From: Planctomycetota bacterium
Lineage (GTDB): Bacteria > Planctomycetota > B15-G4
Reading direction: 5' to 3'
DNA: 64,000 nt
Assembly: GCA_021604805.1 (NCBI GenBank)
Contig: BQJR01000002.1
Location: 133,078 to 197,077, forward strand
A program made the translations under genes and the position numbers. How positions within the stretch are numbered: position 1 is the stretch's first letter; each line of letters begins with the position of its first letter. A model generated the notes under the pieces. It worked only from the letters and a program-made list of their open reading frames with translations, was not told where the DNA came from and did not search any database. Shown here in pieces: positions 38,329-62,293 of this stretch.

Positions 38329-39531
38329 TCAGTCGTCTCCGGTCTCGTTCAGCAGCAGCCGCACTTGGCCGTCGATGTAGCTGCTGGTCACGATGTCCGG
38401 GCGGCCGTCGCCGTTGAAATCGCCCACGGCCACGCTGCAGCGCGATCCGCCGGCCTCGAGAAGCTGGGAGGCGCCGAAGCGACCGTCGCCCCGCCCCAGG
38501 GCCACGCAGACCCCCTCGCGCTCCTGCTCGAACCACGTGGAACCGGTGATCAGGTCGAGCTGGCCGTCGCCATCGAGATCGGCGAGACGCAACGAGTTGG
38601 CGGGCAGCGCCGCGAGATGGGGCGACGAGGGCAGCGCGTCGAGCCGTCCGCCGCCGAGGTTGCGCAGCACGAGCACCCGTTCGCTCTCGTCAGTGGTGGC
38701 GACGACGTCGGGTTCGCCGTCGCCATCCAGATCCCCCACGCTCAGCGCGGCCGGACGCTCGGCACCGATCACGGGAGTGTGCGCGCCGAGTCGGAAGCTC
38801 GTGGACGCGAACATGCCGGTGCCCGAGCCCGCCATGAGCGTGATCCCGTTGCCACTCATGTCGGTGAACAGCGCGTCGGGGTGCGCGTCGCCGGTCAGCT
38901 CGAGGACCTGCAGTTGCTCGTAAGGGTGCAAGTGCGCGAAGTAGGGCTGCGCGAGGGCGGGACGGAAGCCGCCGCTGCCGTCGCCGAGGTGGACGGAGAG
39001 CGCGTGCGCGTCGGGCAGCGTGGCGAGCAGGTCGAGGTGCGCGTCGTGGTTGACGTCCTCGAGCACCACGGAGTGAACGTGCGCGCGCGCCCCTGCGTGC
39101 AGCGGCACGCGGCGAGGCTCCGACTGGAAGCCGCCAGCGCCGTCCCCCAAGAGCACCGACGCGTTCCAATCGTCGTGCTGGATCACGGCCACGTCGAGAT
39201 GACCGTCTTCGTCCACGTCGCCGAGCGCCACGCGCAAGGCCGAGGGCCCCACGCGTGCAGGCTCGGGCACGAGCCGCAAGCCGCCGCGACCATCGCCGAG
39301 CAACACGCGCACGACACCGGCTTCGGGGCGCGGCTCATCACCGCAACACGGCCCGCAGGCGAGCACGACATCGAGGTGTCCGTCTCCGTTGAGATCGCCG
39401 ACTTCCGGCAGGCCAGCCTGCGGTCCGACGGCCACCGGTAAGTGCGTGGCGCTGAACGACACGCGCGCGGCGTCGTCGTCCGCACTGATGAGGGTGGTAG
39501 CCAGCAAACAGGCCGTGAGCGTCTGCCACAT
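38329..39531 (-). CDS. Secreted FG-GAP/VCBS repeat protein
   Basis: Starts at an internal ATG (MWQTLTACLLATTLISA) of ORF 38329..39867. Repeats include GDLNGDGHLDVVLA, GDVDEDGHLDVAV, GDLDGDGEPDVVA, ADLDGDGQLDLIT and GDFNGDGRPDIVT. Confidence 0.85.
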   Translation of the reverse strand: MWQTLTACLLATTLISADDDAARVSFSATHLPVAVGPQAGLPEVGDLNGDGHLDVVLACGPCCGDEPRPEAGVVRVLLGDGRGGLRLVPEPARVGPSALRVALGDVDEDGHLDVAVIQHDDWNASVLLGDGAGGFQSEPRRVPLHAGARAHVHSVVLEDVNHDAHLDLLATLPDAHALSVHLGDGSGGFRPALAQPYFAHLHPYEQLQVLELTGDAHPDALFTDMSGNGITLMAGSGTGMFASTSFRLGAHTPVIGAERPAALSVGDLDGDGEPDVVATTDESERVLVLRNLGGGRLDALPSSPHLAALPANSLRLADLDGDGQLDLITGSTWFEQEREGVCVALGRGDGRFGASQLLEAGGSRCSVAVGDFNGDGRPDIVTSSYIDGQVRLLLNETGDD

Positions 39532-39917
39532 CGTGGGGCTCCGTGAGTGAGGGATCCGGTTCGCGGAGCAAGAGCGCCGAAGACCTCGGAGTGTTAGCGA
39601 CGGATTCCCCGCCGGCGTGTGCGGGGACCGCGCGCTCCTGTCGCGCTCGACTGCAAAGGCCCTCGTGCTTGGGTGATTCAACCCACGCATCGCGGGTGGT
39701 GGCGAACCGCGCTCGTGATCCGCACGTAGCGCGCCGCCACGGGTGATCGACGCCTGGGCGGATCGGCCGAGACGGTGTAGTTTGAATCCTGCGATCTCGC
39801 GCCGCGCGGGATGGCAGGTCGATCCATCGCGCGACCGCGTCCCCGAAGGCGTGGTCCCTCTCCCCAAGTGGTCCGTCGGCTCGCGGCGTCGGCAGGCACC
39901 AAGCTGGAGTTCCCCCC

Positions 39918-42386
39918 TTGACGAAGACTCGTACGCCCACGCTCCGACACGCGCTGCAAGCGGCTGGCCTCGCGTTGTTCGGCGGCGCGCTCGCTGCCCC
40001 CGACTTGCAGGCCCAGCTCGACATCATCCCTGAGCAACCGATCCTGATTCAGGCGCTCCAAACCGGGAGCACGGAGATCTTCGCGGGGCGCTCCACCTTT
40101 GTGCGCGTGCCCGTCACGCTGGTGAACGCGGTGTCGACCCCGGTGCATGTCGACGGTCTGCTGCACGTCATCGTCGACGGCGTGGAACTGCCCGACTCCC
40201 CTTACTTCTCCGACAACGGCCCGTTCCCCGCCGGCAGCTTCGGCTCGCTCGGCGCCGAGGACTTCACGCTCAACTTCATCATCGTCCCGCCCGAGTCGGA
40301 CGACGTGGTGTTGCAAGTGGAGATCAACCCGCCGGGCCCGAGCTTCGTGGCCGAGGCGAACACGGCGAACAACGTCGTGACCACGCCCTCCTTCGAAATC
40401 GGGCGCCTCAACACAGTCACCATGGCCTACGCGCCGATCGACTACCGCCCGAGCGGCGGCCCCACGCCGAACCCGCCCGACAGCGATCTGATCAAGCCGG
40501 GCGTGGGCGACAACTTCGTGCAAGGCGTGTACCCCGGTGGCCGCATCGAGTACCGCCGCATCGACACGCCCACCAAGCTGTGGACGCAATCGGTGGCGGG
40601 CACGGGCAGCACGCTCAACAACTCGCTCGCCGGCGACCTGGCGCTCATGTCGCCGCAACCGAACTTCATCTACGGCTGGATCCCCGGGAGCATCCCCTAC
40701 AACGGGCAGGCGCTGCTCCCCGGCGTGGCGTCGATGGGCAACACGCAGCCGATCCGTCACCAACGCACCTACGCGCACGAGCTCGGCCACAACACGAACT
40801 TGTTCCACAACGGTTCACAAGCCGGCGAGGTCGGCGTGGACGTGGAACGGCACCTCAACATCACCGAGTCCTTGCCGCGCATCAAAGCTCCCACGCTCAA
40901 CGACATCATGGTGGCGGGGCAGCTCACGAACACCGCGTGGATCACGAACAGCAGCTACCAGAACTCGATCAACCACTTCGCGTGGGACCCGGGCACTGAC
41001 ACCGACACCGACGCCGCTCCCGAAGGCGAAGGCGCACGCTTGATCGTGTCGGGCATGTGGAACCGTGAGACGGGTGAGATCAGCATGGATCCGATCGTGG
41101 AGGTCAACAGCGGTCGTCTCACGCCGGCGGGGCTGGCTGGCAGCCGCGACCTCGTGCTGAGTGGTTCCGTGCGCGGCGAGACGGCGCGCGAGTTGCCACT
41201 CACCGTGCGCACCAGCCTCGACGAGTGCGAAGCCTGCCGCAACACAGCGGGCCTCGAAGCTGACACCGACTCGAACGGTTTCGCGCATCCGCTGGTGGGT
41301 TTCGTGGCCGTCATCCCGGCCACCAACGCCGCTGGCGAACGCCTCGACCAGCTCTCGATCGCGGGCCTGGGCACGCACCCGGCGCAGTCGCTCACGATCA
41401 CGCGCAGCGAGTCGGTGCCCACTGTGGCCTTCCGCACGCAAGCCAGCGAGATGCTCGTGGGCGACAATCTGCACCTCGCTTGGCAAGGCAGCGATGACGA
41501 CGGCGACGAGCTCAGCTACGTGCTGCGCTACGTGCCCGACGGCGACGCCCACATGGTGCCGCTGCTCAACAACAGCAGCGCCACCAGCTTCGACGTCGAC
41601 TTCTCACGCCTGCCGCAGTTCGTGGCCGGCAAGGGTTACTTCGAGTTGCTCGCCACCGACGGCCTCAACACCACGCGCACGCGCACCGAGCCGCTGCAAG
41701 GCAACGGCGCCTACGCGGGAGGCGGCGGCAACGCGCCCTTCGTGGAGATCTACCACCCCGACAACGGCTTCCGCTTCAAGCAAGGCGCGAACATCGTGCT
41801 GCACAGTTCGGGCTGGGACCTCGAGGACTTCGCGCTCGAAGGCGAGAGCATTCAATGGACGTCCGACGTGGACGGCGCGCTCGGCAGCGGGCGTCGCTTC
41901 ACGATCAACAGCCTCACGCCGGGCGTGCACCAGATCACGGTCACGGCCACCGACTCCGGCGGCCTGATGAGTTCGCGCACGCATGCGGTCGTGGTCAGCG
42001 CGCGCGACTTGCCCGACGTGGACCGCGTGGTCTGCTCGTCGGACATCGGCTTCGGCGGACCGGGCAACGCGCAACTCAGCCTGTGTGGCGGCGACCTCAC
42101 GGCCGGCGGCTCGGCCGAGCTGCTGCTCAGCGGCGCGGCGCCCAACTCGATGGCCTTCCTGGCGATCGGGCTGACCGCCAACCCCACGCCGCTCAAGGGT
42201 GGCACCTTCGTGCCGCTGCCCTACGCCACGCTCATGCCGGGCCTCACCGACGTGAACGGTGAGATCTCCACGCCGAACGTGATGAGCGTGGGTGGCCCGC
42301 TCGCCTTCTACGTGCAGTACGTCATCGCAGACGGCAGTCAGGCGGCCGGCTACGACTTCTCGAACGCTGTGTTCGTGGAGTTCTGA
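39918..42386 (+). CDS. Secreted metzincin-like zinc metalloprotease, paralog 1, with shared C-terminal domain
   Basis: TTG start and signal-like N-terminus (LQAAGLALFGGALAAPDLQAQ). HELGHNTNLFH (HExxHxxxxxH) at 40776-40808, followed by LNDIMVAG (a possible Met-turn). It is collinear with the downstream paralog along its whole length. Confidence 0.8.
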   Translation: MTKTRTPTLRHALQAAGLALFGGALAAPDLQAQLDIIPEQPILIQALQTGSTEIFAGRSTFVRVPVTLVNAVSTPVHVDGLLHVIVDGVELPDSPYFSDNGPFPAGSFGSLGAEDFTLNFIIVPPESDDVVLQVEINPPGPSFVAEANTANNVVTTPSFEIGRLNTVTMAYAPIDYRPSGGPTPNPPDSDLIKPGVGDNFVQGVYPGGRIEYRRIDTPTKLWTQSVAGTGSTLNNSLAGDLALMSPQPNFIYGWIPGSIPYNGQALLPGVASMGNTQPIRHQRTYAHELGHNTNLFHNGSQAGEVGVDVERHLNITESLPRIKAPTLNDIMVAGQLTNTAWITNSSYQNSINHFAWDPGTDTDTDAAPEGEGARLIVSGMWNRETGEISMDPIVEVNSGRLTPAGLAGSRDLVLSGSVRGETARELPLTVRTSLDECEACRNTAGLEADTDSNGFAHPLVGFVAVIPATNAAGERLDQLSIAGLGTHPAQSLTITRSESVPTVAFRTQASEMLVGDNLHLAWQGSDDDGDELSYVLRYVPDGDAHMVPLLNNSSATSFDVDFSRLPQFVAGKGYFELLATDGLNTTRTRTEPLQGNGAYAGGGGNAPFVEIYHPDNGFRFKQGANIVLHSSGWDLEDFALEGESIQWTSDVDGALGSGRRFTINSLTPGVHQITVTATDSGGLMSSRTHAVVVSARDLPDVDRVVCSSDIGFGGPGNAQLSLCGGDLTAGGSAELLLSGAAPNSMAFLAIGLTANPTPLKGGTFVPLPYATLMPGLTDVNGEISTPNVMSVGGPLAFYVQYVIADGSQAAGYDFSNAVFVEF

Positions 42387-42499
42387 GCCTCGCCCGTTGA
42401 ACCCGGCGCGGAGTCGGGACGCCCCCGACTCCGCGCCGCAGTCCCGCCGTCCCGATGTGCACGCTCCCTGCCGTTCCCGCCGCTGACCCCGAGGCTCTC

Positions 42500-44929
42500 A
42501 TGCGCTCCTTCACCGCTTCCCTGTTCGGCCTCGCGCTGACCTCCCTGATCGCCGCGCCGCTGAGCGCTCAGAGCATCGACTTCACCGTGTCCGACGTGGT
42601 GCTCGTGCAAGTGTTCCAGAACGGCAACACCGAACTCATCGCCGAGCGCCCGATGCAGCTGCGCGTGGGCGTGGACGTGCAGAACCAGACCAACCCCGTG
42701 AAGAAGATCGACGCCTTCGTGCGCGTGTTCGTGGACGGCGTGGAAGCCGCCGACTCGCCGATCTTCTCGAACAACGGCCCCTTCAACGCCACCGGCAACT
42801 TCCAGCCGAACCTCGGCGCCAGCTCGCTCAACTTCACCTACATCCCGCCGCTGTCGAACGACGTGGTCTTCCAAGTGGAGATCAACCCGCCGGGACCGAA
42901 CTTCGTGCCCGAAGCCGACACCGGGAACAACAGCTTCAGCACCGCGCCGCAACAGTTCCGCAACCAGGATCGACTCGAGTTGGCCTACGCGCCGATCGAC
43001 CTGCGTCCGGGCGGCGGCGGCACGCCGAACCTGCCGAACAACAACCTGATCAAACCGGGCGTGGGCGACAACTTCGTCCAAGGCATCTTGCCCACGGGCT
43101 CGATCGAGTACCGCCGCATCGACGCACCCTCGAAGCTCTGGACCGGCTCCGTGCAGGGCACAGGTTCCTCGCTGAACAGCTCACTCACGAACGACCTGTT
43201 CCTGATGAGCCCGCAGCCCGACTTCATCTACGGCTGGGTGCCCGGCTCGCTGCCCTACAACGGGCAAGCCTTCCTCAACGGCAAGGCGTCGATGGGCAAC
43301 ACCGAATCGATCCGTCATCAGCGCACCTACGCGCATGAGCTGGGTCACAACTTCGGGCTCGGGCACAACGGTGAGAACAACGGCAACTTCGGCCTCGACG
43401 TCGAGCAACACCTGTGGCTCACCGAAGGTCTCGGCAAGCAGAAGGCCGACTCGCTCAACGACATCATGGTGGCCGGGCAGCTGACCAACACCGCGTGGGT
43501 CTCGCCGAACACGTTCAACTTCATCAAGGGGCAGCCCGAGTTCACGCCCTCGCCGGCGCCGACTCCCGGTGACGAGGATCCGCCCGTCGACCGCGTGCTG
43601 ATCGGCGGCATCTGGAACCAGGAGACGGGCACGATCGCGCTCAACCCCGTGCTCGAAGTGCCGCGCACGACGCGCGGCAGCGAGCCGGCCGCGCTGGGCA
43701 CGCGCGACTTGCTCGTGCGCGCCTACGCCGGCGAACGGCTGGTGCGCGAGTTTCCGCTGAGCGCGCGCAGCACCGGCGATGCCTGCGTCGACGAGACGCA
43801 GCACTCCGACAACGACGCGCACATCGAAGCCGACCCGAACGTGGGCTTCGCGGCGCTGATCCCGGCGCGTGGCCTCGACGGCGCGCGCTACGAGCGCCTC
43901 GAACTCGTGAGCCTGGGTGCGCAGGCGCAGCCCGTCACGCTCACGCGCAGTGCCCACGCGCCGGAAGTGCGCTTCCTCACGCCGCGCGCGAAGGAGCCGC
44001 TCGGTGCGCAGGTGGAGGTCAGCTGGGAAGCCAGTGATGCCGACGGCGACGAGCTCTTCAGCACGCTGCGCTTCATCCCCGACGGCGACGACCACATCGT
44101 GCCGCTCGTCGTGCACAGCACCGAGACCTCGCACCACGTCGACCTGTCGCGCTTGCCGGACTTTCGCGCGGGCGCCGGCTACTTCGAGTTGCTCGTCACC
44201 GACGGGTTGCGCACCACGCGCGCGCGCAGCGCCCCGCTCGAGGGCAGCGGCGCCTTCGCGGGCGCCGGCGGCAACCCGCCCTTCGTGGAGATCTACCATC
44301 CCGACGACGGCTTCCAGTTCCGCAAGGGCATGAACGTGATCCTGCACAGCTCGGGCTGGGACCTCGAAGACCACCGTCTCGACGGCATGAGCATCGAGTG
44401 GAATTCGGATGTCGACGGCGTGCTCGGTCACGGACGCCGCTTCACGTACACCGACTTGAGCGTGGGTCCGCACGTGATCACCGTCACCGCCACCGACTCC
44501 GGCGGACAGATGACCTCGCGCAGCAACGCGATCATGATCAACGACCGCGACCTCCCCGAAACCGAGCCCGTGTTCTGCGCCACCGACCTCGGCTTCGGCG
44601 GACCGGGCAGCGCGCAACTGAGCTTGTGCGGCGGCGATCTCACCTCGGGCGGCACCGCCGAACTGCTGCTCACCGACGCGCCGGCGCTCACGCCCGCCTT
44701 CTTCGTGGTGGGCCTCAACAACAGCCCGGTCTTCGTGAAGGGCGGCACCGTGGTGCCCTTCCCGTACACCTCGCTGCTCACGCGCATGACGGACGCCGCA
44801 GGTGAGATCTCGAACTCCGGGATCACGAGCCCCGGCATCCCACTCACGATCTACGTGCAGTACGCCATCGTGGATGGAAGCCAGCCCGCGGGCTTCGGCT
44901 TCTCGAACGCGCTCGAAGTGGAGTTCTGA
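42500..44929 (+). CDS. Secreted metzincin-like zinc metalloprotease, paralog 2, with shared C-terminal domain
   Basis: ATG 42500 (MRSFTASLFGLALTSLIAAPLSAQS). HELGHNFGLGH at 43334-43366 is a perfect HExxHxxGxxH motif, followed by LNDIMVAG. Many blocks are identical to paralog 1 (LIKPGVGDNFVQG, IEYRRID, PYNGQA, HQRTYAHELGHN, YFELL.TDGL.TTR, PFVEIYHPD.GF). Confidence 0.85.
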   Translation: MRSFTASLFGLALTSLIAAPLSAQSIDFTVSDVVLVQVFQNGNTELIAERPMQLRVGVDVQNQTNPVKKIDAFVRVFVDGVEAADSPIFSNNGPFNATGNFQPNLGASSLNFTYIPPLSNDVVFQVEINPPGPNFVPEADTGNNSFSTAPQQFRNQDRLELAYAPIDLRPGGGGTPNLPNNNLIKPGVGDNFVQGILPTGSIEYRRIDAPSKLWTGSVQGTGSSLNSSLTNDLFLMSPQPDFIYGWVPGSLPYNGQAFLNGKASMGNTESIRHQRTYAHELGHNFGLGHNGENNGNFGLDVEQHLWLTEGLGKQKADSLNDIMVAGQLTNTAWVSPNTFNFIKGQPEFTPSPAPTPGDEDPPVDRVLIGGIWNQETGTIALNPVLEVPRTTRGSEPAALGTRDLLVRAYAGERLVREFPLSARSTGDACVDETQHSDNDAHIEADPNVGFAALIPARGLDGARYERLELVSLGAQAQPVTLTRSAHAPEVRFLTPRAKEPLGAQVEVSWEASDADGDELFSTLRFIPDGDDHIVPLVVHSTETSHHVDLSRLPDFRAGAGYFELLVTDGLRTTRARSAPLEGSGAFAGAGGNPPFVEIYHPDDGFQFRKGMNVILHSSGWDLEDHRLDGMSIEWNSDVDGVLGHGRRFTYTDLSVGPHVITVTATDSGGQMTSRSNAIMINDRDLPETEPVFCATDLGFGGPGSAQLSLCGGDLTSGGTAELLLTDAPALTPAFFVVGLNNSPVFVKGGTVVPFPYTSLLTRMTDAAGEISNSGITSPGIPLTIYVQYAIVDGSQPAGFGFSNALEVEF

Positions 44930-45030
44930 GCACGCAGCTCAGCGCGCGGGGCCGGCCTGAGCGTCACAGCGCGGAGAGCGGGGTATAGTCACCGGGAGCG
45001 CCCCCTTGCGCTGTCGACCCACCACCCGCC

Positions 45031-52462: not shown

Positions 52463-55129
52463 ATGCATCGCCCTCGATCTCTCGATCTGTGTCTCACCCT
52501 GTTCGCACTCACTTGGCTTGTTGCCCCTGCACGTTCGCAGGAGAGCGCCGCACTCTTCGACGCGCCGGTTGTGGTGACCGACCCCTTGAGTCGCTTCGAC
52601 CTGGTGCTCGACCTCGATGCCGACGGCTACGCCGATGCTGTCGAGTGGTGGTGGAGCTCCGCCGACAGCTCCGAGAGCGTGCGAGTGAGCGGCTGGCTCA
52701 ACGATCAGTCGGGCAAGTTGACCAAGACGTGGACGAGCATGCTCGCCATGCCCGAACCCGACCTCGCGTTCGTGGGCGGCTCCGGTGTCGGCAACTTCGA
52801 CGGCGATGCGCGCGACGACTTCGCACTGACCTTCGGCAAGCACGTGTTCGTGTTCTCGTCGAACGGATCGGCGCCACCGACGCAGCTCCTCGGGCTCACG
52901 AGACCTGACACGATCCAATCCACGCTCGTGGCCGACTTCGATCTCGACGGGCTCAGCGACATCGCGATCAACACGCACAAGACCGTTGAGCTGCACTTCA
53001 ACCCAAGCGGCGGCTCGGGTTTCGCCCTGGCCGGAAGCTTCGGCATCGACGGCGAGAACAAGCTCTGGCTCAGTGAAGTGAATGGCGACGACGCGCCCGA
53101 CCTGATGAACGTGGACGGCCCGCAAGTTGTCTTCCACGAGATCGTCAACGGGCAACGCGTGAGCCAGTTCGCGCTCGACCACGAGCTCGGCGGCGACTCG
53201 AACCTCGCGCCGCTCCTGGGCGACATCGATGGCGACGGTGACGACGACGTCGTCGCCTTCCGCGAAGGCTTGTACCGTGTGTTCCGGCGCAGCGGGCCCA
53301 CGACCTTCAACTCCGAACTCGTGCGCGCGGGCGGCCCCGCCACGATGCTCGCCGACGTGGACGGCGACGGCGACCTCGACGGCGCCTGCTGTGCCGGCGG
53401 CGGAGGGGGTGATCCCGGCGCCTTGAAGCAGTCGGCGATGTTCGAGATCTCACTCAACGACGGCACGGGGAACTTCGCCCCGGGCTACGGCATCGTCTCG
53501 CTGGGCACCACCTCCCTGGGCATCGCGGGTGTCGCCGACCTCGATCACGACGGCGACACGGATCTCATCGCCGGCCGCACCGTGTACTACGCCTCCGAGA
53601 ACGGGCTCGGCACACCGCGCCACGTCGAACTCAATCACCAACTGTTCTATGCGCACGACGTGGTCGACCCGGATGGCGACGGCGACACCGACCTGAACTT
53701 CGGCGAAGTGACGTACCTCGCGAACCAGGGTGAAGGCGCTTTCACTTCGAGGTCGACCGACATCGCGACCCCGCCCGTAGGCGTCAAGTGGCGCGGCCCC
53801 GGCTACCCCGGCGACTTCGATGGCGATGGCGACGTCGACCTGTTGCTCAGCAAGTGGACCGGCCAGTTCACGTTCCCGGTGTTCCTCGGCATGCGCCTGC
53901 TGGTCAACAACGGCGCGGGCATGCTCTTCGACGCGGGGGACGCAGCCGCGCCCGAGGTCTTCATGAACGTGAGCGGGCTCACCGACTGGGACGACAACCC
54001 CGACGACTCGGTGATCGCGGATGTCGACGGTGACGGCGACGTCGACCTGATCTGTCGCTCGCTCGAACTCATGACGAGCCGCGTCTTCCTCAACGACGGC
54101 GCCGGCTTCTTCGTCGAAGGCGTGGAGTTCCCGCTGGCTGCCGTGCGTCACGTGGCCGACCTGAACGGTGATGCGCACCCCGACCTCGTGGTGTCTTCCA
54201 CGCAACTCGGTGTGCGCTTCGGCCGCGGCGGCGGGGAGTTCAGCGCCGTGACCTGGCTGCCCGCCAGCCAAACAGAGTTCGAAGACCTCACCGACTGCGG
54301 TGACCTCGACAGTGACGGCGATGTCGACATCGCGCTCGTCGACTCCGCCTCGAACACGATCACGCTGCACCACAACAACGGCGCGGGCAACTTCACCACC
54401 GACACAACCAGCCTCGCCGCGTACACCACGGACGACACGTCCCCCTCGCTGCGCCGCGCCTTGATCTTGGATGTGGATCTCGACGGCCGCAACGACCTGC
54501 TGGTCACGTCGCCGACCGACGCGAGCCCGGCCAGCTACATCTTCCGCCAGCTCCCCGACGGAACGCTCGACGCGCCGCTGATCCAAGTCGTGCGGCCGAC
54601 GGCCTTCGGCGATGTCGACGGAGACGGCGACCTCGACCTGCTCTCCGATCGATTCAGCTTCAACGAACTGTTGCCGACGCTCCCCTCGCGCGTGATCGAC
54701 AACCGCGCGTTCGAGAACCCCGACTCGGGTCGCGTGCTGCAGTTCGGCAGCTCGAAGCCCGGCACCGCAGGGCAAGCGCCGTTGCTCGGCGCCAGCGGGC
54801 CGCTTCGCGTGGGTGACGTCGTGACGATTCACCTCACGGGAGTGCAGGCGGGCCAGCTCGGCGTCGTGAGTGTCGGCCTCAACCAGACCGACTTGCCCAA
54901 CACGCCCTGGTTCAACGTGACCGCTTACACCTGGCCGTGGCTCGCCTTCAAGCTGCTGCCAGCGCCGGGTTCAGGCCAGCTCCCCGGTGACGCGGGGCTG
55001 CAGCTCTCCTACGTGGTCGATCCGAGCTTCCCCGCCGTGGGACCGATCTACCTTCAAGCGATCTTCGACGACCCCGAAGCGATCGCAGGACGCACGTACT
55101 CGAACGGACTCATGCTCGAGCACGAGTGA
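52463..55129 (+). CDS. Secreted FG-GAP/VCBS repeat protein with shared C-terminal domain
   Basis: Signal-like MHRPRSLDLCLTLFALTWLVAPARSQ. More than 12 repeats of the D.DGDGD.D type (LDLDADGYADAV, GDIDGDGDDDVV, ADVDGDGDLDGA, ADLDHDGDTDLI, DPDGDGDTDLN, GDFDGDGDVDLL, ADVDGDGDVDLI, GDLDSDGDVDIA, GDVDGDGDLDLL). Confidence 0.88.
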   Translation: MHRPRSLDLCLTLFALTWLVAPARSQESAALFDAPVVVTDPLSRFDLVLDLDADGYADAVEWWWSSADSSESVRVSGWLNDQSGKLTKTWTSMLAMPEPDLAFVGGSGVGNFDGDARDDFALTFGKHVFVFSSNGSAPPTQLLGLTRPDTIQSTLVADFDLDGLSDIAINTHKTVELHFNPSGGSGFALAGSFGIDGENKLWLSEVNGDDAPDLMNVDGPQVVFHEIVNGQRVSQFALDHELGGDSNLAPLLGDIDGDGDDDVVAFREGLYRVFRRSGPTTFNSELVRAGGPATMLADVDGDGDLDGACCAGGGGGDPGALKQSAMFEISLNDGTGNFAPGYGIVSLGTTSLGIAGVADLDHDGDTDLIAGRTVYYASENGLGTPRHVELNHQLFYAHDVVDPDGDGDTDLNFGEVTYLANQGEGAFTSRSTDIATPPVGVKWRGPGYPGDFDGDGDVDLLLSKWTGQFTFPVFLGMRLLVNNGAGMLFDAGDAAAPEVFMNVSGLTDWDDNPDDSVIADVDGDGDVDLICRSLELMTSRVFLNDGAGFFVEGVEFPLAAVRHVADLNGDAHPDLVVSSTQLGVRFGRGGGEFSAVTWLPASQTEFEDLTDCGDLDSDGDVDIALVDSASNTITLHHNNGAGNFTTDTTSLAAYTTDDTSPSLRRALILDVDLDGRNDLLVTSPTDASPASYIFRQLPDGTLDAPLIQVVRPTAFGDVDGDGDLDLLSDRFSFNELLPTLPSRVIDNRAFENPDSGRVLQFGSSKPGTAGQAPLLGASGPLRVGDVVTIHLTGVQAGQLGVVSVGLNQTDLPNTPWFNVTAYTWPWLAFKLLPAPGSGQLPGDAGLQLSYVVDPSFPAVGPIYLQAIFDDPEAIAGRTYSNGLMLEHE

Positions 55130-55164
55130 GCGCGCGCGGAGCAACGTGCTCGCCCGACGCTACA

Positions 55165-55232
55165 CCCCGACTGCCGCCGCGCTCCACGCCGACTGCCGCC
55201 GCGTTACGCCCCGACCGCCGCCGCGCTCCACA
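55165..55232. repeat. Three tandem ~20-24-nt copies of the terminal coding sequence of the aconitase-family gene (CCGAC[TC]GCCGCCGCG[CT]T[CA]C[AG])
   Basis: ccgactgccgccgcgctccacg / ccgactgccgccgcgttacg / ccccgaccgccgccgcgctccaca, read directly. The third copy is the start of the left direct repeat. The intact gene has a single copy at 58951-58970. Confidence 0.75.
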
Positions 55233-55637
55233 TCCCCGCCGTGTAGCTCGCGATCTTTCCTTCGATCGCCGACACGCTGACTTGCTCGGTGGTTTCCGAC
55301 ACGCCGGGGCCGCAGCCGATGCACGCGCCGCAGCCCGGGTTGATGATCGTGACGCCGGCGGCCTTGAAGGTGTCGAGCCAGCCGCGCTCTTCGGCGACGC
55401 GTTGCGTGGCCTCGCTGCCGAACTGGATGAAGAACTCCACGCCGTCGGCGACTTTCTTGCCCGCGGCGACGGCTTCGCTCATCACGCGCGCGTACATCTC
55501 GAAGTCGTCGACCTTGCTGGCGGTGCACGAACCGCCGTAGGCGATGTCGATGAACACATCGCCGAGATCGTCGACGATGGCTGCGTTCGTCGGGTCGCTC
55601 GGGATGCCCTTGTTGGGGTCACCGGGGTGCGCCACCA
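55204..55637 (-). pseudogene. Displaced 3'-terminal fragment of an aconitase-family gene (duplicate of 58942-59453) with a 78-nt internal deletion
   Basis: The translation VAHPGDPNKGIPSDPTN...YGGSCTASKVDDFEMYARVMSEAVAAGKKVADGVEFFIQFGSEATQRVAEERGWLDTFKAAGVTIINPGCGACIGCGPGVSETTEQVSVSAIEGKIASYTAGMWSAAAV matches the last ~170 aa of the 58942-60933 product. It lacks the first ~500 aa and the 26 aa NRNFQGRSGPGKLYLASPLTVAASAI. The N-terminal 20 aa of ORF 55204..55707 are unrelated junction sequence. Confidence 0.85.
55213..55637. repeat. Left direct repeat (DR-L) flanking the low-GC island
   Basis: 425 nt. By-eye alignment to 58951-59453 gives roughly 90% identity. Identity is highest near the gene's stop and decays toward the island. 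A 78-nt gap lies between two gatcgc microhomologies. Confidence 0.85.
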
Positions 55638-55750
55638 GCGGCCACTGCGTGGCCAGGCAGAGGACTCGACGGCTGCGGTTGCTTGCTCGTCGAGCAACAC
55701 TCACCATTCAAGACTCGATGCAACCAGCAATCCAACAAGCAAAGGGTCAT

Positions 55751-57157
55751 TCAATCAAAGAGGAGCAGCTGGTTCTCGTGGCTGCCGGAGCGAACAGAAA
55801 TCCACTGCGCCAACTCCGCAGCACGAAATCCGGATCGACTAAGGCGCTTTCCACGCCCGGGATTAGCAATCCCGACACAAACCCCAGCCAGCATTAGAGC
55901 TCGAGTGCATTCGATTACGTTCTTGTCTATGTGCTCGATGTCACCATTAAAGTTTACCGGATGACCACGAGACATCAGTGTAAAGCGATGCCCATCATCG
56001 TCTTTGCAGATATAGTCACCGAAAACTTTTGCATAGCGCGAACTCGGCGAGTCCACAGCACGCCACGCGGGCGAGAGCTCCAACTCGGGCATCTCCAAGA
56101 GCCCCCGATACTCGACGTCGGAGGACGACACACTTGCGAGGAATAGCGGCTTTGAATACCCCCACTTATGGAGCATCGCGACACCAGCCGAACCACCTGA
56201 CACCTTCCCCGTCGCACCGATTACTACCCAGTAATCCACTGACCGATGAGCTAGTGGCTGAATGAGATGTGAGCGTTGCAATAGCTGCACGCGAGATGCA
56301 TCACGATCGAGCCCTACAACCGAAGCAGCTCTATCAGCCAAACCCTCGCAGGTGGCCGCACCAATTGCTCCAAGCCCAACAACAACTACACCAGCCTGAG
56401 CCAATCGACAATCATATATTGCAAGTCGGTTTTCGATCTCACGCAGGCTCGCCTCGGCGATTGCTCGAGCTTCATACCTCCGCTTCCATCGAGTTCTCGC
56501 TGGAGCGAGGAAAGAGGAATCTTTGGAGATACCCCCTTCGGCGCGCATTCGCCTGAATGAATCAAGCATCTCTACACCGCTAGTCGTTTGCTCAATCACA
56601 ACAACCCTAGCGCGAATGCCAGCATTCTTGACCGACTGCCCCAGGATCCCTCCATCATCAAGCACAATCAAGCAATCGACATCAGATCCCTCATGCACCC
56701 GTACAGCACCTTCATCAACCACATCTCGAGCTACGGACTGTAAGGCATCGCCTGTCGGCATTCTCGCCATGGACGCAGCATAGTCATCCGGTTGATCAAT
56801 AACTGTGCAGCCCCAGCGCCGCAGGACCTGAACCACAAAGGGGTGCGCCGAGTACGGTTTTGTTCCGAGCACACAACGACTTGGCTCCAATCCCAGTTTC
56901 AGCAATGCTGCGACAAGCGGAAGCTGCGACGCGAGACAGTGCTGCATCCCCACGAGCACGCAACGCTTTAATGAGACTTTTGAATAGGTCGCTAGCACCT
57001 GCCCCAGCATGGGCATGCGGTAGGCATCTAGAAGTGCGCGTTCGGCAACCTCGGCAAGAGCAGGATTCGCGAGCGTTCGCTGAGCCCAGCACTCTCGCTG
57101 CAAGACGACTGACGGGTAGTCAGGCTTCATTGACAGACTTTTCATCAGCATCCTCAC
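55751..57157 (-). CDS. Divergent S-adenosyl-L-homocysteine-hydrolase-fold NAD-binding protein (island gene 3)
   Basis: 468 aa. Block-wise collinear with SAH hydrolase: RMPMLGQVLATYSKVSLKRCVLVGMQHCLASQLPLVAALLKLG versus EMPGLM..Y...[37 protein letters not shown] versus LDDGGDL; EQTTSGV versus EETTTGV; VVVVGLGAIGAATCEGL...VVGLDRD versus VAVVAGYGDVGKGCAQAL...VIITEIDP; SSSDVEY versus GHFDVEI; SRGHPVNF versus AEGRLVNL. The start is ambiguous: GTG 57157, or ATG at 57151, 57145 or 57130. Confidence 0.75.
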   Translation of the reverse strand: MRMLMKSLSMKPDYPSVVLQRECWAQRTLANPALAEVAERALLDAYRMPMLGQVLATYSKVSLKRCVLVGMQHCLASQLPLVAALLKLGLEPSRCVLGTKPYSAHPFVVQVLRRWGCTVIDQPDDYAASMARMPTGDALQSVARDVVDEGAVRVHEGSDVDCLIVLDDGGILGQSVKNAGIRARVVVIEQTTSGVEMLDSFRRMRAEGGISKDSSFLAPARTRWKRRYEARAIAEASLREIENRLAIYDCRLAQAGVVVVGLGAIGAATCEGLADRAASVVGLDRDASRVQLLQRSHLIQPLAHRSVDYWVVIGATGKVSGGSAGVAMLHKWGYSKPLFLASVSSSDVEYRGLLEMPELELSPAWRAVDSPSSRYAKVFGDYICKDDDGHRFTLMSRGHPVNFNGDIEHIDKNVIECTRALMLAGVCVGIANPGRGKRLSRSGFRAAELAQWISVRSGSHENQLLLFD

Positions 57158-58523
57158 TCGGAGAAATGCCTATCCCGTAATTCTTGCCGAGCTCGCAGTA
57201 AAGGGAAGCCAACTCAGCCAAATACTCCTGCAGCTTGCGAGCGTCTCCAACAATCGATTCAATTGGAAGCGCAGGCTCACTCGCGAAGTCAATCGTCAAG
57301 CACACTGGGCAACCACGGCGCGAGCTGCGTGAAGTCCAGTTCTTGTCCGGCACACCAAGAATGGCGACGATGCCGATCATGCGCTCCTCGAACCATCTAG
57401 CTACCTTTTCATCACCTTCAAGTCGGTAGTATAGAATCTCCTCACCCGCTTTTCCAAGACAGCGTACAGCAACGGGCTCCTGAGGATCGTCAAAAGGATC
57501 CTCATCATCTGCACCCTGAAAAACGAACCAACGCCGGGTAGGAAGCGGAAACGCTGGCTGCAGAAACTGCCTAAGTCGAAAGTCTCCCTCGCGCTCTAGA
57601 GGCTCAATGTAGGTTCGAGCATTCAGTGATTTAGAAACACCCCAAACCGTTGCACTACAGGCGTACCTATCGATTGAAACGGCGGCGTACGCGATTTTCT
57701 GCAGCAAAGCCCGCCAGTACATTCCAAATACGTTTGATGCTTCGGAGGAATCTTCTGAACCTGAAGCATCTTGGAGGTACGCCCGAAACCCTTTCAAGAA
57801 TGCGCTTGAAGGTGATAGCTCGCCCGCAATCTCTTCAAACAGCGTTTCAACCGAGCGCCTTGCAATGGGCGACCGGCGAATCCCAGCGAACAGGACTTCA
57901 CCCGCTCGGGTAGAGCGGCTCGCTGCGAGATGCGCCTCGGCCTGAACGGCAATCACGCAGTTACGCTTGAGATCTATCAGAGGCACGCCACTGAATGACC
58001 TCTCAGCGAGGACCTTGTCAGTGACGACCACAGCGTCGTACTCAGAAGTCACCTGACTGACGGGGCGGAGTTGAGGTTTCGACTCATCACTAAAGGCAAG
58101 AAGCGCAAAGTCGCCCGCGACACATGCCTTCACTCTCTCAGTTGAGAGCCTCTCAATCGAAAGCGCCTGGCGCTCGCCCGGGGATGCCGCTGAGTCACCC
58201 CCCTTCACATTCGGAGGGTGAGAGTCAAGCTTAAGCACTGCAAAATCTACATAGTGAGGTCCGAACTTGCGATAACAGACCTCCTCGACAGTGAACCCGA
58301 TCAAATCATCTGCTTGATCGGGGAATCGCACTTTGAGGTCGCGGTTAATTGCGTTTCCAAGTGCAAACAGGTGACCTGGTGCAACAACCCGATGAGCTCC
58401 CTGATCACGCCCACCTCCCAACCGAGCGAGCCAGCAGTGACAAATTCGCCGCCCACCATCAACAACAGTGCCCTCTGCTGTGACTTCAACTAACTCGGCA
58501 AGCGAATAGGAAATATTATCCAC
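57120..58523 (-). CDS. Trypsin-fold (S1/Trypsin_2-like) serine protease with an unassigned ~250-aa C-terminal domain (island gene 2)
   Basis: 467 aa. Candidate catalytic triad in canonical order and context: His in VVAPGHLFALGN, Asp in VDFAVLKLD, Ser in ERSFSGVPLIDLKRNCVIAV (the GxSGxP position). I recognise no family for the region from about aa 215 to the end. Confidence 0.75.
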   Translation of the reverse strand: MDNISYSLAELVEVTAEGTVVDGGRRICHCWLARLGGGRDQGAHRVVAPGHLFALGNAINRDLKVRFPDQADDLIGFTVEEVCYRKFGPHYVDFAVLKLDSHPPNVKGGDSAASPGERQALSIERLSTERVKACVAGDFALLAFSDESKPQLRPVSQVTSEYDAVVVTDKVLAERSFSGVPLIDLKRNCVIAVQAEAHLAASRSTRAGEVLFAGIRRSPIARRSVETLFEEIAGELSPSSAFLKGFRAYLQDASGSEDSSEASNVFGMYWRALLQKIAYAAVSIDRYACSATVWGVSKSLNARTYIEPLEREGDFRLRQFLQPAFPLPTRRWFVFQGADDEDPFDDPQEPVAVRCLGKAGEEILYYRLEGDEKVARWFEERMIGIVAILGVPDKNWTSRSSRRGCPVCLTIDFASEPALPIESIVGDARKLQEYLAELASLYCELGKNYGIGISPSEDADEKSVNEA

Positions 58524-58836
58524 CGGTAACCTGCCACTGTGCTCGAATCCTCACTGCCCCCGTTCCTCCGCACTTAATGATCCACTTCATTCCGGTTTCA
58601 CACGAAAGCTCCGCACCGAGTTCAACTTCAAGTGAAGTCGGACGAATGCCACTTGCATGCCCCACTGCGGCCGAACCGATTCTATGCACCAAACCCGCCA
58701 AGACTTGACCGATCTCTCCAAGTCGTTCGGGATTAAGTGAAGCCGCTCCGCTTTCAGCAGTTGCAACCCGCCCATCGGGGCTGGCTTGCTCGATCAGAAC
58801 GTCGACACCGTCGATGCACATTGACACGTACTGCAT
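58516..58836 (-). CDS. Small trypsin-co-occurring (Trypco / CU044_2847-like) protein (island gene 1)
   Basis: 106 aa with a GGAGGA RBS 5 nt upstream of the ATG. The pattern VDVLIEQAS...(~45 aa)...RPTSLEVELGAELSCETGMKWIIKCGGTGAVRIRAQW resembles, from memory, small proteins encoded next to trypsin-like proteases. It overlaps the protease start by 8 nt. Confidence 0.6.
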   Translation of the reverse strand: MQYVSMCIDGVDVLIEQASPDGRVATAESGAASLNPERLGEIGQVLAGLVHRIGSAAVGHASGIRPTSLEVELGAELSCETGMKWIIKCGGTGAVRIRAQWQVTGG

Positions 58837-58941
58837 CCCATCCTCCGTTAAACGTCCCCGTCCTTGCCCCTCCAGGTTTGAGCCAGCGCAGGATAGCAGA
58901 CCATTTGAGGAGGGGACCTAAAGCCACTCAGCGCCCCTCGA

Positions 58942-60933
58942 TTACCTGACGACCGCCGCCGCGCTCCACATCCCCGCCGTGTAGCTCGCGATCTTTCCCT
59001 CGATCGCTGACGCCGCCACCGTGAGCGGCGACGCGAGATACAGCTTGCCCGGCCCCGAACGCCCTTGGAAGTTGCGGTTGATCGCCGACACGCTGACTTG
59101 CTCAGTGGTCTCCGACACGCCCGGCCCGCAGCCGATGCACGCGCCGCAGCCCGGGTTGATGATCGTGACGCCGGCGGCCTTGAAGGTGTCGAGCCAGCCG
59201 CGCTCTTCGGCCACGGCTTGCGTGGCCTTGCTGCCGAACTGGATGAAGAACTCCACGCCGTCGGCGACCTTCTTGCCCGCGGCGACGGCTTCGCTCATCA
59301 CGCGCGCGTACATCTCGAAGTCGTCGACCTTGCCGGCGGTGCAGGAGCCGCCGTAGGCGATGTCGATGGCCACGTCGCCGAGCTCGTGCACGAAGGCGCC
59401 GTTGGTCGGGTCGCTGGGGATGCCGGCGTTCGGGTCACCGGGGTGCGCCACCATCGGGCGCAGCGTGGACAAGTCGATCGTGTGGACGCCGCCGTCGTAG
59501 ACCGCGCCTTCGTCGGGGGCGACGAGCGCGGCCATGAGCTCGGCCTTGCTGCGCGCGTCGCTACGGTTGGCGAGGATCCAGTCGACGAGCGCTTCGTCGC
59601 CCTCGCAGATGCCCGACTTGGCCGTGCACTCGGTGGCCATGTTGGCGAGCGTGGCGCGTTCGTCGAGCGACAGCTTCGCGAGGCCGGGGCCGCCGAACTC
59701 CATCATGCGATCGAGCGTGACCTCGTGCTTCGCGTACTTCTCGAGGATGTGCAGCATCACGTCTTTCGCCGAACAGTCGGCGGGCAACTCGCCCACCAGC
59801 TCGAAGCGCACGCTCTCGGCCACTTGCACGAAGGTGCTGCCCGACGCGATCAAGGACGCGTACTCGGTGGCCCCCACGCCGTAGGTCAGCGCGTTGTTGC
59901 CGCCGCCCATGCAGGTGTGACTGTCGGTGGCTTGGATGAAGTCGCCCGGATCCACGAAGTCGCGGCGCGCGACCTCGTGACAGATGCCGGGGCTGATGCC
60001 GTCGCGGCTCTGGTAGTCGCGCACCCCAGTGTGCTGCATGAACTCGGTCTGCAGCTCGCGCAGCGTGCCGATCTTGTCGGCGAAGGGCATGAAGCGCTTC
60101 ACGCCGTCGGCATACAGCAGGTGGTCTTCGAAGACGGCGAACTTGCTCGCGTCGGGCAACGTGTAGTCGTTCCCGTACTCGCGACGTAGGAACTCGTGCA
60201 CTTGCGCGGTCGTGAACTCGTGGCTGTAGCCGCCGTCGACCTTGGCCATGAGCGCGTCGCCGGGCTTCACGTAGTCGCCCTCGCCGATCATGTGCGCGGC
60301 GATCATCTTCTCGCCCATCGTCATCGGGCGCTTCGGCGTGCCGGGCGCGGGCACACTGATCTCGCCGGCCTTGAGCGCCTTCGCGAACGGGAACAAGCCG
60401 CCCATCTCCAACATGATCTTGGTGACGGGGTCGTAGCGCCCGGTGAACTCGTCGATCTCGATCGACTCACCGGCCTGCAAGCGCGCGAGCTGCGCGTGGT
60501 CGCCCATGAGCTGCCCGAGGTTGATGTTGTTGCGCTCGTGGATCGGCGCGAAGGACGCCGCGAACACGTATTTGATGCCGCTGAACTTCTCGCACTGCGG
60601 CGCCGTCTCGCGCGAGCTGCCGGTGCCTTTGCGGTAACCGCTCACGATGGCTTCGAAGTTGCCGTCCATGAGGCCGCGCTCGGGGATCACGCGTTCGCCG
60701 TCTTTGAGCAAGCCGGCGTAGGCGTTGAGCGCGATGTCTTCGGGGCGGTGACTGAAGCACACCCAGGCCGGGGTCATCACGTCGGTGTTGATGTCGTCGA
60801 GCAGGTCGTCGACCGAGAGGTCTTCCATGCGCAGGTTCAGCTCGCCGCGCACTTGCTTGGCGATCAGGTCGAGGTCCTTGGTGAGGAACAAGACGCGCTT
60901 GGTCGGGTCGAGCTGGATCGTGCGAGCGGCCAT
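58942..60933 (-). CDS. Aconitase/3-isopropylmalate-dehydratase family protein, swivel (LeuD-like) domain N-terminal to catalytic domains
   Basis: Starts at an internal ATG (MAARTIQLDPTKRV) of ORF 58942..60996. Swivel-domain motif GTGSSRE...ASFAPIHERNNINLG. Catalytic motifs ATDSHTCMGG, YGGSCTAGK, NPGCGACIGCG and SAINRNFQGRSG are intact. Confidence 0.88.
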   Translation of the reverse strand: MAARTIQLDPTKRVLFLTKDLDLIAKQVRGELNLRMEDLSVDDLLDDINTDVMTPAWVCFSHRPEDIALNAYAGLLKDGERVIPERGLMDGNFEAIVSGYRKGTGSSRETAPQCEKFSGIKYVFAASFAPIHERNNINLGQLMGDHAQLARLQAGESIEIDEFTGRYDPVTKIMLEMGGLFPFAKALKAGEISVPAPGTPKRPMTMGEKMIAAHMIGEGDYVKPGDALMAKVDGGYSHEFTTAQVHEFLRREYGNDYTLPDASKFAVFEDHLLYADGVKRFMPFADKIGTLRELQTEFMQHTGVRDYQSRDGISPGICHEVARRDFVDPGDFIQATDSHTCMGGGNNALTYGVGATEYASLIASGSTFVQVAESVRFELVGELPADCSAKDVMLHILEKYAKHEVTLDRMMEFGGPGLAKLSLDERATLANMATECTAKSGICEGDEALVDWILANRSDARSKAELMAALVAPDEGAVYDGGVHTIDLSTLRPMVAHPGDPNAGIPSDPTNGAFVHELGDVAIDIAYGGSCTAGKVDDFEMYARVMSEAVAAGKKVADGVEFFIQFGSKATQAVAEERGWLDTFKAAGVTIINPGCGACIGCGPGVSETTEQVSVSAINRNFQGRSGPGKLYLASPLTVAASAIEGKIASYTAGMWSAAAVVR
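58951..59453. repeat. Right direct repeat (DR-R), part of the intact aconitase-family gene
   Basis: 503 nt, equal to DR-L plus the 78-nt segment missing in DR-L. Confidence 0.85.
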
Positions 60934-61034
60934 GGTGAACTCCCGGGTCGTGTGCAGGTGCGCGCCTCGATGCTCGGCGGCGCGTGCCGTGGTCACGCGC
61001 GGTGAACACGCGCGAGGTGCTGCCCTGACATGCC

Positions 61035-61072
61035 AGCGGGCCGCGCCCTCTTCGCAGAGAGCGCGGCCCGCT
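61035..61072 (-). terminator. Strong hairpin (12-bp perfect stem) after the thiolase gene, possible terminator without a U-tract
   Basis: agcgggccgcgc (61035-61046) pairs with gcgcggcccgct (61061-61072) around a 14-nt loop. It lies between the thiolase stop (61088) and the aconitase-family start (60933). Confidence 0.5.
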
Positions 61073-61087
61073 GTGAAGCGAGCGCGC

Positions 61088-62293
61088 TCAGAGGCGCTCG
61101 ATGATCATCGCGATGCCTTGCCCGCCGCCGATGCAGGCGGAGGCGACACCGAACTGGCCGTCGCGCTTCTCGAGCGAGTGCGCCAGCGTGAGCAGCAAGC
61201 GCGTGCCCGTGGCACCCAGCGGGTGACCCAAGGCGATGGCGCCGCCATTCACGTTGCACTTGTCGCGGTCGAGTTCGAGCTCGCGCTCCACCGCCAGGTA
61301 CTGCGCGCTGAAGGCTTCGTTGATCTCGAACAGGTCGATGTCGTCGATGGACATGCCGGCCTTGGCGAGCGCGTTGCGGATCGCCGGCGCCGGGCCGATG
61401 CCCATCTCGCTCGGGTCCACGCCCACCGTGTCCCAGGACACGATGCGCGCCTTGGGCTTCCAGCCGTTGATCTCGGCGGCGCCCGCGGTGGTGAGCATGA
61501 TGGCGGCCGCGCCGTCCACGATGCCCGACGCGTTGCCGGCCGTGACCGTGCCGTCCTTGCCGAAGGCCGCGCGCAGCTTGCCGAGACCTTCGAGCGTGGT
61601 GTCGGGCTTGATGTGATCGTCGGTGTCGACGACGCCCACGACCTTCTCGCGCTTCACGATCTCGACCGGCGCGATCTCGTCGGCGAAGGTGCCGTTCTTC
61701 ACGGCCTCGGCGCCGAGCTGGTGACTGCGCAACGCGTACTCATCCTGCGCCTCACGCGAGATCTCGTAGCGCTTGCCGAGCTTCTCGGCCGTCTGCGCCA
61801 TGAACAGTCCGCAGATCGGATCGCGCAGCGAGCTCATCAACTGGTCTTCGAGCTTCCACTCCTGACCGAAGCGGTAGCCGGCGCGCGCGTTCCAAAGGAT
61901 GTGCGGGCTCTGACTCATCGACTCGGTGCCGCCGGCCAACACGGTCTTGGCTTCGTCGCACTTGATGAGGTGCGCCGCGGAAATCACCGACTGGATGCCC
62001 GAGCCGCACAAGCGGTTCACGGTGAGCGCGGGCTTCTCGATCGGGATGCCAGCCTTGAGCTGGATGTTGCGCGCGCCGTAGAGCGCGTCGGGCGAACTGT
62101 AGAGCACGTTGCCGAAGACCGTGTGGTCGACGAGTTCCACCGGCACACCGGTGCGCTCCATGGCGGCCTTGGCAGCGTGCGCGCCGAGGTCGAGAGCCGA
62201 GAAGCCGGCGAGCTTCCCGTAGCCGGGCGTGCCGTTGTACTCGGCCATGGGCGTACGCGCCCCGCCGAGGATGACGAGATCGTGCTCACTCAT
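61088..62293 (-). CDS. Acetyl-CoA C-acetyltransferase (thiolase II)
   Basis: VILGGARTPM, active-site NRLCGSGIQS, C-terminal NVNGGAIALGHPLGATG and ACIGGGQG. Confidence 0.93.
   Translation of the reverse strand: MSEHDLVILGGARTPMAEYNGTPGYGKLAGFSALDLGAHAAKAAMERTGVPVELVDHTVFGNVLYSSPDALYGARNIQLKAGIPIEKPALTVNRLCGSGIQSVISAAHLIKCDEAKTVLAGGTESMSQSPHILWNARAGYRFGQEWKLEDQLMSSLRDPICGLFMAQTAEKLGKRYEISREAQDEYALRSHQLGAEAVKNGTFADEIAPVEIVKREKVVGVVDTDDHIKPDTTLEGLGKLRAAFGKDGTVTAGNASGIVDGAAAIMLTTAGAAEINGWKPKARIVSWDTVGVDPSEMGIGPAPAIRNALAKAGMSIDDIDLFEINEAFSAQYLAVERELELDRDKCNVNGGAIALGHPLGATGTRLLLTLAHSLEKRDGQFGVASACIGGGQGIAMIIERL

Follow-up and report, generated by a model that had tools for sequence, protein, structure and literature searches.

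A low-GC island between diverged copies of the acn 3' end in a planctomycetal genome: possible insertion by homologous recombination

The elements e14 and phage 21 are inserted by an integrase into the 3' end of the Escherichia coli gene icd, to which they supply a substitute end. In elements of this type, the integrase gene lies beside the attachment (att) site, and a short identical core is found at a sharp boundary. Defence hotspots that are flanked by core genes and lack the hallmarks of mobile elements, for example those of Pseudomonas aeruginosa, were defined from many genomes of one species, and duplications of the flanks are not part of their definition. In this study, we analysed a 64-kb stretch of DNA (the window) from DHS20C15, a metagenome-assembled genome (MAG) of Planctomycetota, which was examined as a single assembled genome. 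A 3.3-kb low-GC island in this window is bracketed by two diverged direct copies of the 3' end of the aconitase-family gene acn. We suggest, with about even confidence, that the island was inserted by general homologous recombination of the RecA type, anchored in the end of acn and independent of any site-specific recombinase.

Several described systems move or rearrange without a recombinase of their own. The unconventional circularizable structures (UCS; Palmieri et al. 2013) are recombinase-less and flanked by long direct repeats (PMC7843796). In Campylobacter coli, the pcp-cfr(C) circle is mediated by an ordinary gene, pcp, and re-integrates by homology, as shown experimentally (PMC10770853). 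For the effector-immunity arrays of the T6SS (type VI secretion system), homology-facilitated illegitimate recombination was proposed to displace gene ends, as it was for the displacement of Rhs C-terminal ends (Jackson et al. 2009) (PMC5361080).

The island of DHS20C15 (55661-58941, minus strand) has a GC content of 0.549 against 0.67-0.68 in its flanks and is the only stretch of the window below 62% GC. The target gene acn (58942-60996, minus strand) is intact and codes for a fused small and large subunit. Its functional 3' end, designated DR-R (58950-59473, minus strand; ~520 nt), adjoins the island with its last codons and stop codon, and the displaced copy, DR-L (~450 nt), lies beyond the island, so that the order along the locus is acn, DR-R, island, DR-L, and native flank. 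In a self-comparison of the window, DR-L and DR-R were the sole high-identity repeat, giving BLAST matches of 392 nt at 91.8% identity (E 7e-161) and 62 nt at 96.8%, in agreement with an earlier note on this DNA, which had described the island as bracketed by diverged direct copies of the gene end. The note had also aligned the copies end to end. This holds in that DR-L 55212-55637 and DR-R 58950-59453 align without gaps, except for a single gap of 78 nt in DR-L; the homology, however, does not stop at 55637 but continues to ~55660, where 15 of 23 nt are identical (P = 2e-4) and the sequence still codes L-A-T-x-x-P-L as the orthologues do. The two copies have uninterrupted identity over stretches of 86, 64, 49, and 39 nt, and the island-distal edge of the repeat is abrupt, with the 49-nt perfect run. 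The GC content at third codon positions (GC3) is 0.94 in acn and 0.91 in DR-L, in line with the high GC of both repeats reported before, and thus both are host-like; in the island it is 0.51-0.54.

The 78 nt missing from DR-L at ~55267-55273 lie in DR-R (59002-59085, minus strand) between two copies of GATCGC (59002-59007 and 59080-59085). As noted earlier, their loss at this microhomology removes the motif NRNFQGRSG. The 26 codons taken out, NRNFQGRSGPGKLYLASPLTVAASAI, are missing in frame; DR-L is a displaced, dead copy. The displaced gene end nevertheless forms an open frame of 167 aa (55204-55707, minus strand), whose start lies inside the end of the island. This frame contains no frameshift or stop codon despite a synonymous divergence (dS) of 0.18, and it was called by the gene caller on a contig from the Logan collection. 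The contig in question, DRR328265_113845, comes from a separate assembly and equals positions 55488-58979 of the window exactly, so that both island junctions are reproduced in it; assembled with k=31, it stops inside both repeats and cannot phase them.

The divergence between the two copies is distributed unevenly along the repeat. In the island-distal region A of DR-L (55212-55549, minus strand), which carries the 78-nt deletion, 13 of 338 nt (3.8%) differ from DR-R, mostly at synonymous sites. In the island-proximal region B, the count is 15 of 88 nt (55550-55637, 17%; Fisher P = 7e-5), which amounts to a 4.5-fold jump at ~55550, and in region C it reaches 35% over 55638-55660, so that homology fades out across regions B and C (55550-55660, minus strand). 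The alignment check thus bore out the identity gradient that had been noticed by eye, and the proposal that it marks a crossover inside the gene end fits these data, with the break near 55550. The changes were polarised with 12 orthologues. Region B holds five derived changes on DR-L and two on DR-R, and region A holds four on DR-L (three of them synonymous) and seven on DR-R, mostly synonymous; the excess of derived changes is confined to the island-proximal ~110 nt of DR-L. Region B of DR-L is also farther than that of DR-R from every orthologue (77.7% against 82.8% identity to the related locus L001), whereas the region A copies are equidistant from the orthologues. Protein constraint alone was considered as the cause of the gradient and rejected, as no such profile was seen in the five usable orthologue pairs of similar divergence.

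The substitutions between the two ends resemble those between alleles. Fourteen of the 26 differing codons are synonymous, and the Nei-Gojobori method gave a dS of 0.18 and a nonsynonymous divergence (dN) of 0.051 (dN/dS 0.28). Synonymous changes number 17 of 33, against 8.6 +/- 2.4 expected under random mutation (P = 0.0006). In region A, 8 of the 11 changes are synonymous (P = 0.025 against a model with one decaying copy; over the whole repeat, the same comparison gives P = 0.10). With the two tail codons set aside, eight of the ten amino-acid differences inside the repeat fall at positions that vary among orthologues and show states seen there; the other two (Gly to Ala and Gly to Ser) affect invariant glycines in island-proximal DR-L (alignment codons 19 and 41).

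No recombinase gene accompanies these repeats. None of the three island proteins had a recombinase match in Pfam, NCBIfam, PADLOC, or PHROGs, and none was found for the 467-aa island protein by HMMER against 1.8 billion representatives or for the main open reading frames (ORFs) of 38.3-55.1 kb in a Pfam scan, which agrees with the lack of an integrase stated in the earlier note. No transposase was found in these scans of the island proteins and of the main ORFs either, and no feature of a transposon was found. When the island ends were compared, they had no terminal inverted repeats in common, only chance 6-8-mers. The Rfam scan gave no match, and the only tRNA gene of the window lies at 32.9 kb, outside the island and outside the 20.6-kb block described below. 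As the spacers at the two ends of the island measure only ~100 nt, there is no room in them for integrase remnants.

Two kinds of short repeats near the displaced copy were considered as possible recombination sites. The tandem repetition of the terminal 22-mer is real: Tandem Repeats Finder reported 3.4 copies with 80% matches at 55158-55231, spanning the end of DR-L with its stop codon and lying between DR-L and the convergent FG-GAP gene. A 21-mer of the array occurs within the window only in the array itself and at the end of DR-R. The 22-mer was rejected as an att core located at the junction, because it forms a local tandem array ~430 nt from the island edge and has no further copies in the window; slippage is its most likely origin. 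Downstream of the last stop codon of the island operon, two short inverted repeats occupy 55640-55699, one at 55640-55654 with a 6-bp stem and the other at 55678-55699 with a stem of ~7 bp. The former had been described as a perfect palindrome, but in ggccactgcgtggcc a 3-nt spacer separates the two 6-bp arms of an inverted repeat, and inverted repeats of this kind, perfect over 6 bp and with a short loop, turn up about four times per kb of the window. Neither of the two is statistically distinctive. RNA folding of both junctions showed no stability above shuffles (z = -0.72 and +0.47), and a scan for terminator-like sites found them no more often than in shuffles, with none at a junction. With folds and frequency at chance level, a role of the junction palindromes as recombinase sites or terminators is unsupported.

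To account for this anatomy, we propose that three foreign genes arrived as a cassette directly attached to an acn 3' end of about 0.5 kb, including the stop codon, that was an allele of a related lineage, and that recombination took place between this incoming molecule and the resident acn. The newly arrived end would have completed acn; it would be the part of DR-R that extends from the crossover to the stop codon and borders on the island. The resident end would have been pushed downstream as region A of DR-L together with its own tail and the 22-nt array. Later, the displaced end would have lost its 78 nt by slippage between the GATCGC repeats. We prefer a variant in which a circular molecule was integrated by a single Campbell-type crossover, probably near 55550/59366. 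Regions B and C of DR-L would then be the 5' stub of the element's homology arm, never expressed, long carried, and decayed, and beyond the crossover, on its downstream side, a resident allele that was functional until recently would face a functional allele borne by the element, giving moderate, mostly synonymous differences on both sides. Recombination between the repeats could release the structure again. If the crossover fell upstream of the 78-nt gap, as in most excision events, acn would be left defective by the deletion, and the island would tend to become fixed at its site.

Several observations are consistent with this course of events. At its tail, DR-R continues directly into the island, which indicates that the functional gene end arrived with the island, and the tail of DR-L runs into host-GC DNA, which marks distal DR-L as the resident end. 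This agrees with the earlier claim that the gene was rebuilt by an island-side 3' end, since intact acn is contiguous with foreign DNA and the displaced copy is on the far side. As the GC3 of the repeats (0.91-0.94) is that of the host and the GC3 of the cargo (~0.52) is foreign, the arm would have come from a relative of the host. The identical runs between the copies are ample for RecA, so recombination between them is feasible, and the repeat length of ~0.45-0.5 kb is the size of homologous-recombination arms and far above that of att cores. Had the event been site-specific or illegitimate at the edge, all of DR-L would be resident and would be predicted to decay uniformly, which is not what is observed.

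The locus resembles UCS and the pcp circle in that cargo without a recombinase gene lies between long direct repeats of hundreds of bp (92% identity), which can hold genes or gene parts. Those structures move by recombination between or through the repeats and integrate by homology, the route proposed here for the island. The repeats of UCS are near-identical, whereas those described here are diverged (92%, with the 78-nt gap) and are formed by a housekeeping gene's 3' end, in an arrangement that keeps the gene intact; the cargo is a putative defence module rather than antibiotic resistance, and the host is an uncultured planctomycete. In the T6SS and Rhs loci, as in the present one, incoming DNA has a conserved upstream coding part, a new 3' end, and cargo, the old 3' fragment is shifted downstream as an orphan, and there is no integrase. 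The replaced end in those loci is a variable toxin domain, and its exchange diversifies the protein; here, the two ends code for the same enzyme sequence, the cargo is unrelated to the anchor gene, and only one clear displaced fragment is present. As in elements of the e14 and phage 21 type, the 3' end brought by the element shows synonymous differences, the native end lies beyond the element, and the target gene is rebuilt by the element-borne end (the DR-R stop codon adjoins the island, and acn is full length). The locus differs from them in the lack of an integrase gene and of a short identical core with an abrupt end of homology, as homology fades out instead. Core-gene-flanked defence hotspots are similar in having defence-type cargo between core genes without an integrase, and the same junction has received other cargo in relatives, although only distant relatives are available for this comparison. 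We read the locus as recombinase-free direct-repeat mobility, with the end of an intact housekeeping gene as the repeat and a putative defence module as the cargo.

The earlier note had likened the locus to tyrosine-recombinase islands. A tyrosine or serine recombinase, since deleted or acting in trans, could have integrated an element whose attP included a replacement acn 3' end; the crossover would then lie at the upstream edge of the repeat, in a block of 22 perfectly identical nt (55616-55637 = 59432-59453), and all of DR-L would be native. The rebuilt gene and the displaced old end are as expected of integrase elements at gene 3' ends, and the identical block is adjoined by the two inverted repeats. 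However, neither an integrase nor a remnant of one was found in the island, the spacers measure only ~100 nt, and the homology extends ~23 nt beyond the block (the 15 of 23 nt mentioned above, P = 2e-4), so that the block is not a boundary. It codes for the invariant VAHPGDP in a gene with a GC3 of 0.94, and hence its identity is unremarkable. Identity is lowest at the island-proximal edge, no core is sharp, the hairpins are at chance level, and a uniformly decaying native DR-L does not predict the 4.5-fold jump in divergence. The likeness was therefore not upheld, and we consider site-specific integration unlikely. The structure may also derive from the decay of a larger element, as the note had allowed; the ~100-nt spacers leave no room for integrase remnants. 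The note's other alternative, homologous recombination from a related donor, is better supported. The same topology could likewise arise if linear DNA underwent one-ended homology-facilitated illegitimate recombination, with the acn portion of the donor DNA pairing with the resident gene, the far end of the cassette joined illegitimately in acn at the equivalent of ~55660, the resident end duplicated, and the distal 340 nt homogenised by later conversion. A mechanism of this kind was proposed to explain how 3' fragments became displaced in T6SS and Rhs loci (PMC5361080), and a scar of a flanking gene is present at the same locus in one relative (L003, see below). It needs two steps to yield the divergence break, though, and it is rare and usually deletes rather than duplicates recipient DNA (PMC5361080); in addition, changes in region A after conversion should be mostly nonsynonymous on DR-L, whereas three of the four are synonymous (small numbers). 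We hold this explanation to be improbable as well.

A number of points speak against homologous recombination with an incoming acn end. The searched collections contained neither an empty site in a conspecific genome nor the island a second time, and the donor and recipient alleles are therefore not directly assignable. The polarisation and the regional dN/dS values rest on small counts with outgroups only ~70-80% identical, and where the copies are identical, over as much as 86 nt at a time, their phasing depends on the MAG assembly. Synonymous changes make up 52% overall against ~39% under a model with one constrained and one neutral copy (binomial P = 0.10), so a duplicate decaying in situ is not rejected, and gene conversion that seldom reaches the repeat edge could also give the gradient. 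The main alternative is such edge-limited conversion in a structure that is old, whatever its first origin: the displaced copy would decay neutrally in place, with occasional conversion keeping the interior similar and seldom reaching the island-proximal edge. Besides the share of synonymous changes, the in-frame deletion and the tandem expansion, both signs of slippage in the remnant, agree with it. Against it stand the 8 of 11 synonymous changes in region A (P = 0.025), several of them derived on the functional copy, the abrupt opposite edge of the repeat with its 49-nt perfect run, the lack of a frameshift or stop codon in DR-L despite a dS of 0.18, and a cargo GC3 that is still ~0.52 in a genome with a GC3 of 0.94; we regard it as quite unlikely. 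Finally, the assembler could have threaded together a chromosome with a single acn end (with the tail of DR-L) and a separate 3.8-kb circular or variant molecule consisting of the island and one acn fragment. The identical runs of up to 86 nt between distinguishing sites and the ending of the k=31 contig inside both repeats would permit this. Yet both island junctions are present in two assemblies, no more than 86 nt, which is within a read length, separates neighbouring distinguishing sites, and the region lies inside a 1.16-Mb contig; moreover, an island still joined to a partial copy of acn would be the Campbell-type intermediate itself. A phasing artefact of this kind is very unlikely in our view. 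Tandem duplication followed by loss was rejected as unparsimonious, because a second copy of the island would need an exact deletion.

The acn gene probably starts at the ATG at 60933, and its product has 663-684 aa, with a small-subunit-like domain first and the large-subunit domain second. It matches Pfam Aconitase (1.8e-85) and Aconitase_C (1.7e-9) and the aconitase/IPM dehydratase family of NCBIfam. Its best homologues in a search of 5.8 billion clusters are Planctomycetota orthologues of ~665 aa with 80% identity over 96% of the length. Exact-protein look-ups of acn with two start codons found nothing on record, and a degenerate DNA pattern for its C-terminal peptide EGKIASYTAGMW had no match in JGI metagenomes. 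The ancestral direct downstream neighbour of acn is a gene for isocitrate/isopropylmalate dehydrogenase (Iso_dh; 37161-38288, minus strand in the window). It lies 3-220 nt downstream of acn in about 16 of 80 related loci, and the acn stop and Iso_dh start codons overlap (ATGA) in L001 and L013. In the window, the two genes are now 20.6 kb apart; judged by this gene order, the 20.6 kb is inserted between them and splits an ancestral acn-Iso_dh operon. The conserved operon comprises a thiolase gene, acn, Iso_dh, and a second aconitase-family gene (35956-38288 and 58942-62293 in the window; L001, L002, L013, and other loci).

The block that separates acn from Iso_dh consists of 17 kb of host-GC genes for surface or secreted proteins, DR-L, and the island. 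The host-GC genes (38.3-55.1 kb) code for FG-GAP, PKD, metallopeptidase, Ser/Thr kinase-TPR, and beta-propeller proteins. FG-GAP genes stand at both ends of the 17 kb in opposite orientation (38329-39867, minus strand; 52463-55129, plus strand), the latter being convergent with acn and the host-GC neighbour of the displaced gene end; the two ends of the 17 kb have no nucleotide repeat in common. Two tandem paralogues on the plus strand (40162-42388 and 42720-44931; 822 and 824 aa) are ~70% identical over 2.2 kb at the nucleotide level and show weak PKD and reprolysin-like matches.

A second acn 3' fragment or any island gene was found in none of the 80 related loci; the finding of a duplicated 3' fragment without an island, which would have pointed to an independent local duplication, was thus not made. 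The junction of acn and Iso_dh is disrupted repeatedly in relatives, with other inserts of 3.4-7.4 kb. In L003 (JBQTIY010000009.1, Planctomycetota MAG SAW251), a different low-GC (~57%) cassette occupies 12077-14240 and starts 12 nt past the acn stop codon. It carries a gene for a D12 adenine methyltransferase and a 278-aa ORF, likely a restriction-modification system, and no integrase. At its far edge, there is a 49-63-nt fragment of the flanking Iso_dh, with 88% nucleotide identity to the intact copy 2.1 kb away (E 3e-12). This is the only relative with a low-GC cassette at the junction. The inserts in L009, L021, L034, and L040 have host-like GC and contain no fragments of the flanking genes, and they are therefore uninformative on the mechanism.

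The island itself is one operon of three overlapping head-to-tail genes with the ~100-nt spacers at its ends. The first gene (58516-58836, minus strand) codes for a 106-aa protein of the Trypco1 (Pepco) family (PF19493, 35.4 bits against a cut-off of 24.6), a family described as a death effector that is activated by a protease and forms part of antiviral modules (bioRxiv 10.1101/2025.11.14.688446; PMC7159879). It is followed by genes for a 467-aa protein with no family match (57120-58523, minus strand) and a 468-aa protein with a Rossmann-type GxGxxG segment at residues ~253-297 (55751-57157, minus strand), both near-orphans in databases of billions of sequences. In the N-terminal half of the 467-aa protein, His49, Asp93, and Ser177 are spaced as in the trypsin fold (a motif reading, with no match to a hidden Markov model or in the PDB), and its C-terminal domain also occurs in a fusion with an alpha/beta-hydrolase; the protein is 100% identical to a GenBank entry from DHS20C15. 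PADLOC and PHROGs contributed nothing further on the island proteins, sequence searches of the PDB with the 467-aa and 468-aa proteins were empty, tblastn of both against plasmids gave no match, and a single-sequence AlphaFold model of the 468-aa protein was unusable (pLDDT 32). A weak homologue of an island protein (P0122) sits in a ribosomal-protein operon and so has no context in common with the island. Taken together, the Trypco1/Pepco protein, the 467-aa protein with trypsin-like spacing, and the Rossmann-type 468-aa protein look like a putative protease-effector defence module.

Many defence cassettes sit between core genes without an integrase or transposase, and their route of arrival is mostly deduced from population patterns. 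The homologous-recombination route is known for such cassettes but rarely documented. The present locus keeps a readable scar, an allele-like displaced gene end with a sharp break in divergence, that points to host homologous recombination, in which the copy of a housekeeping-gene end would serve as the attachment site. We infer this insertion mechanism from one genome and no empty site, and the locus is a plausible single example in an uncultured planctomycetal genome. Rather speculatively, the island may belong to a class of homology-arm cassettes that do without a recombinase, each a foreign defence operon permanently welded to about 0.5 kb of the 3' end of a conserved host gene. If so, such cassettes would cycle among related hosts as circles, integrate by a single RecA crossover, and always restore the host gene while leaving the resident end behind. 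Their signature would be a decaying, never-expressed arm stub, as in regions B and C, beside an allele-like distal part, and once the displaced copy had been damaged, a host would pay a price for losing the cassette. If this signature recurs elsewhere, it would offer a way to recognise such events from sequence alone and would extend recombinase-free direct-repeat mobility beyond antibiotic-resistance contexts.

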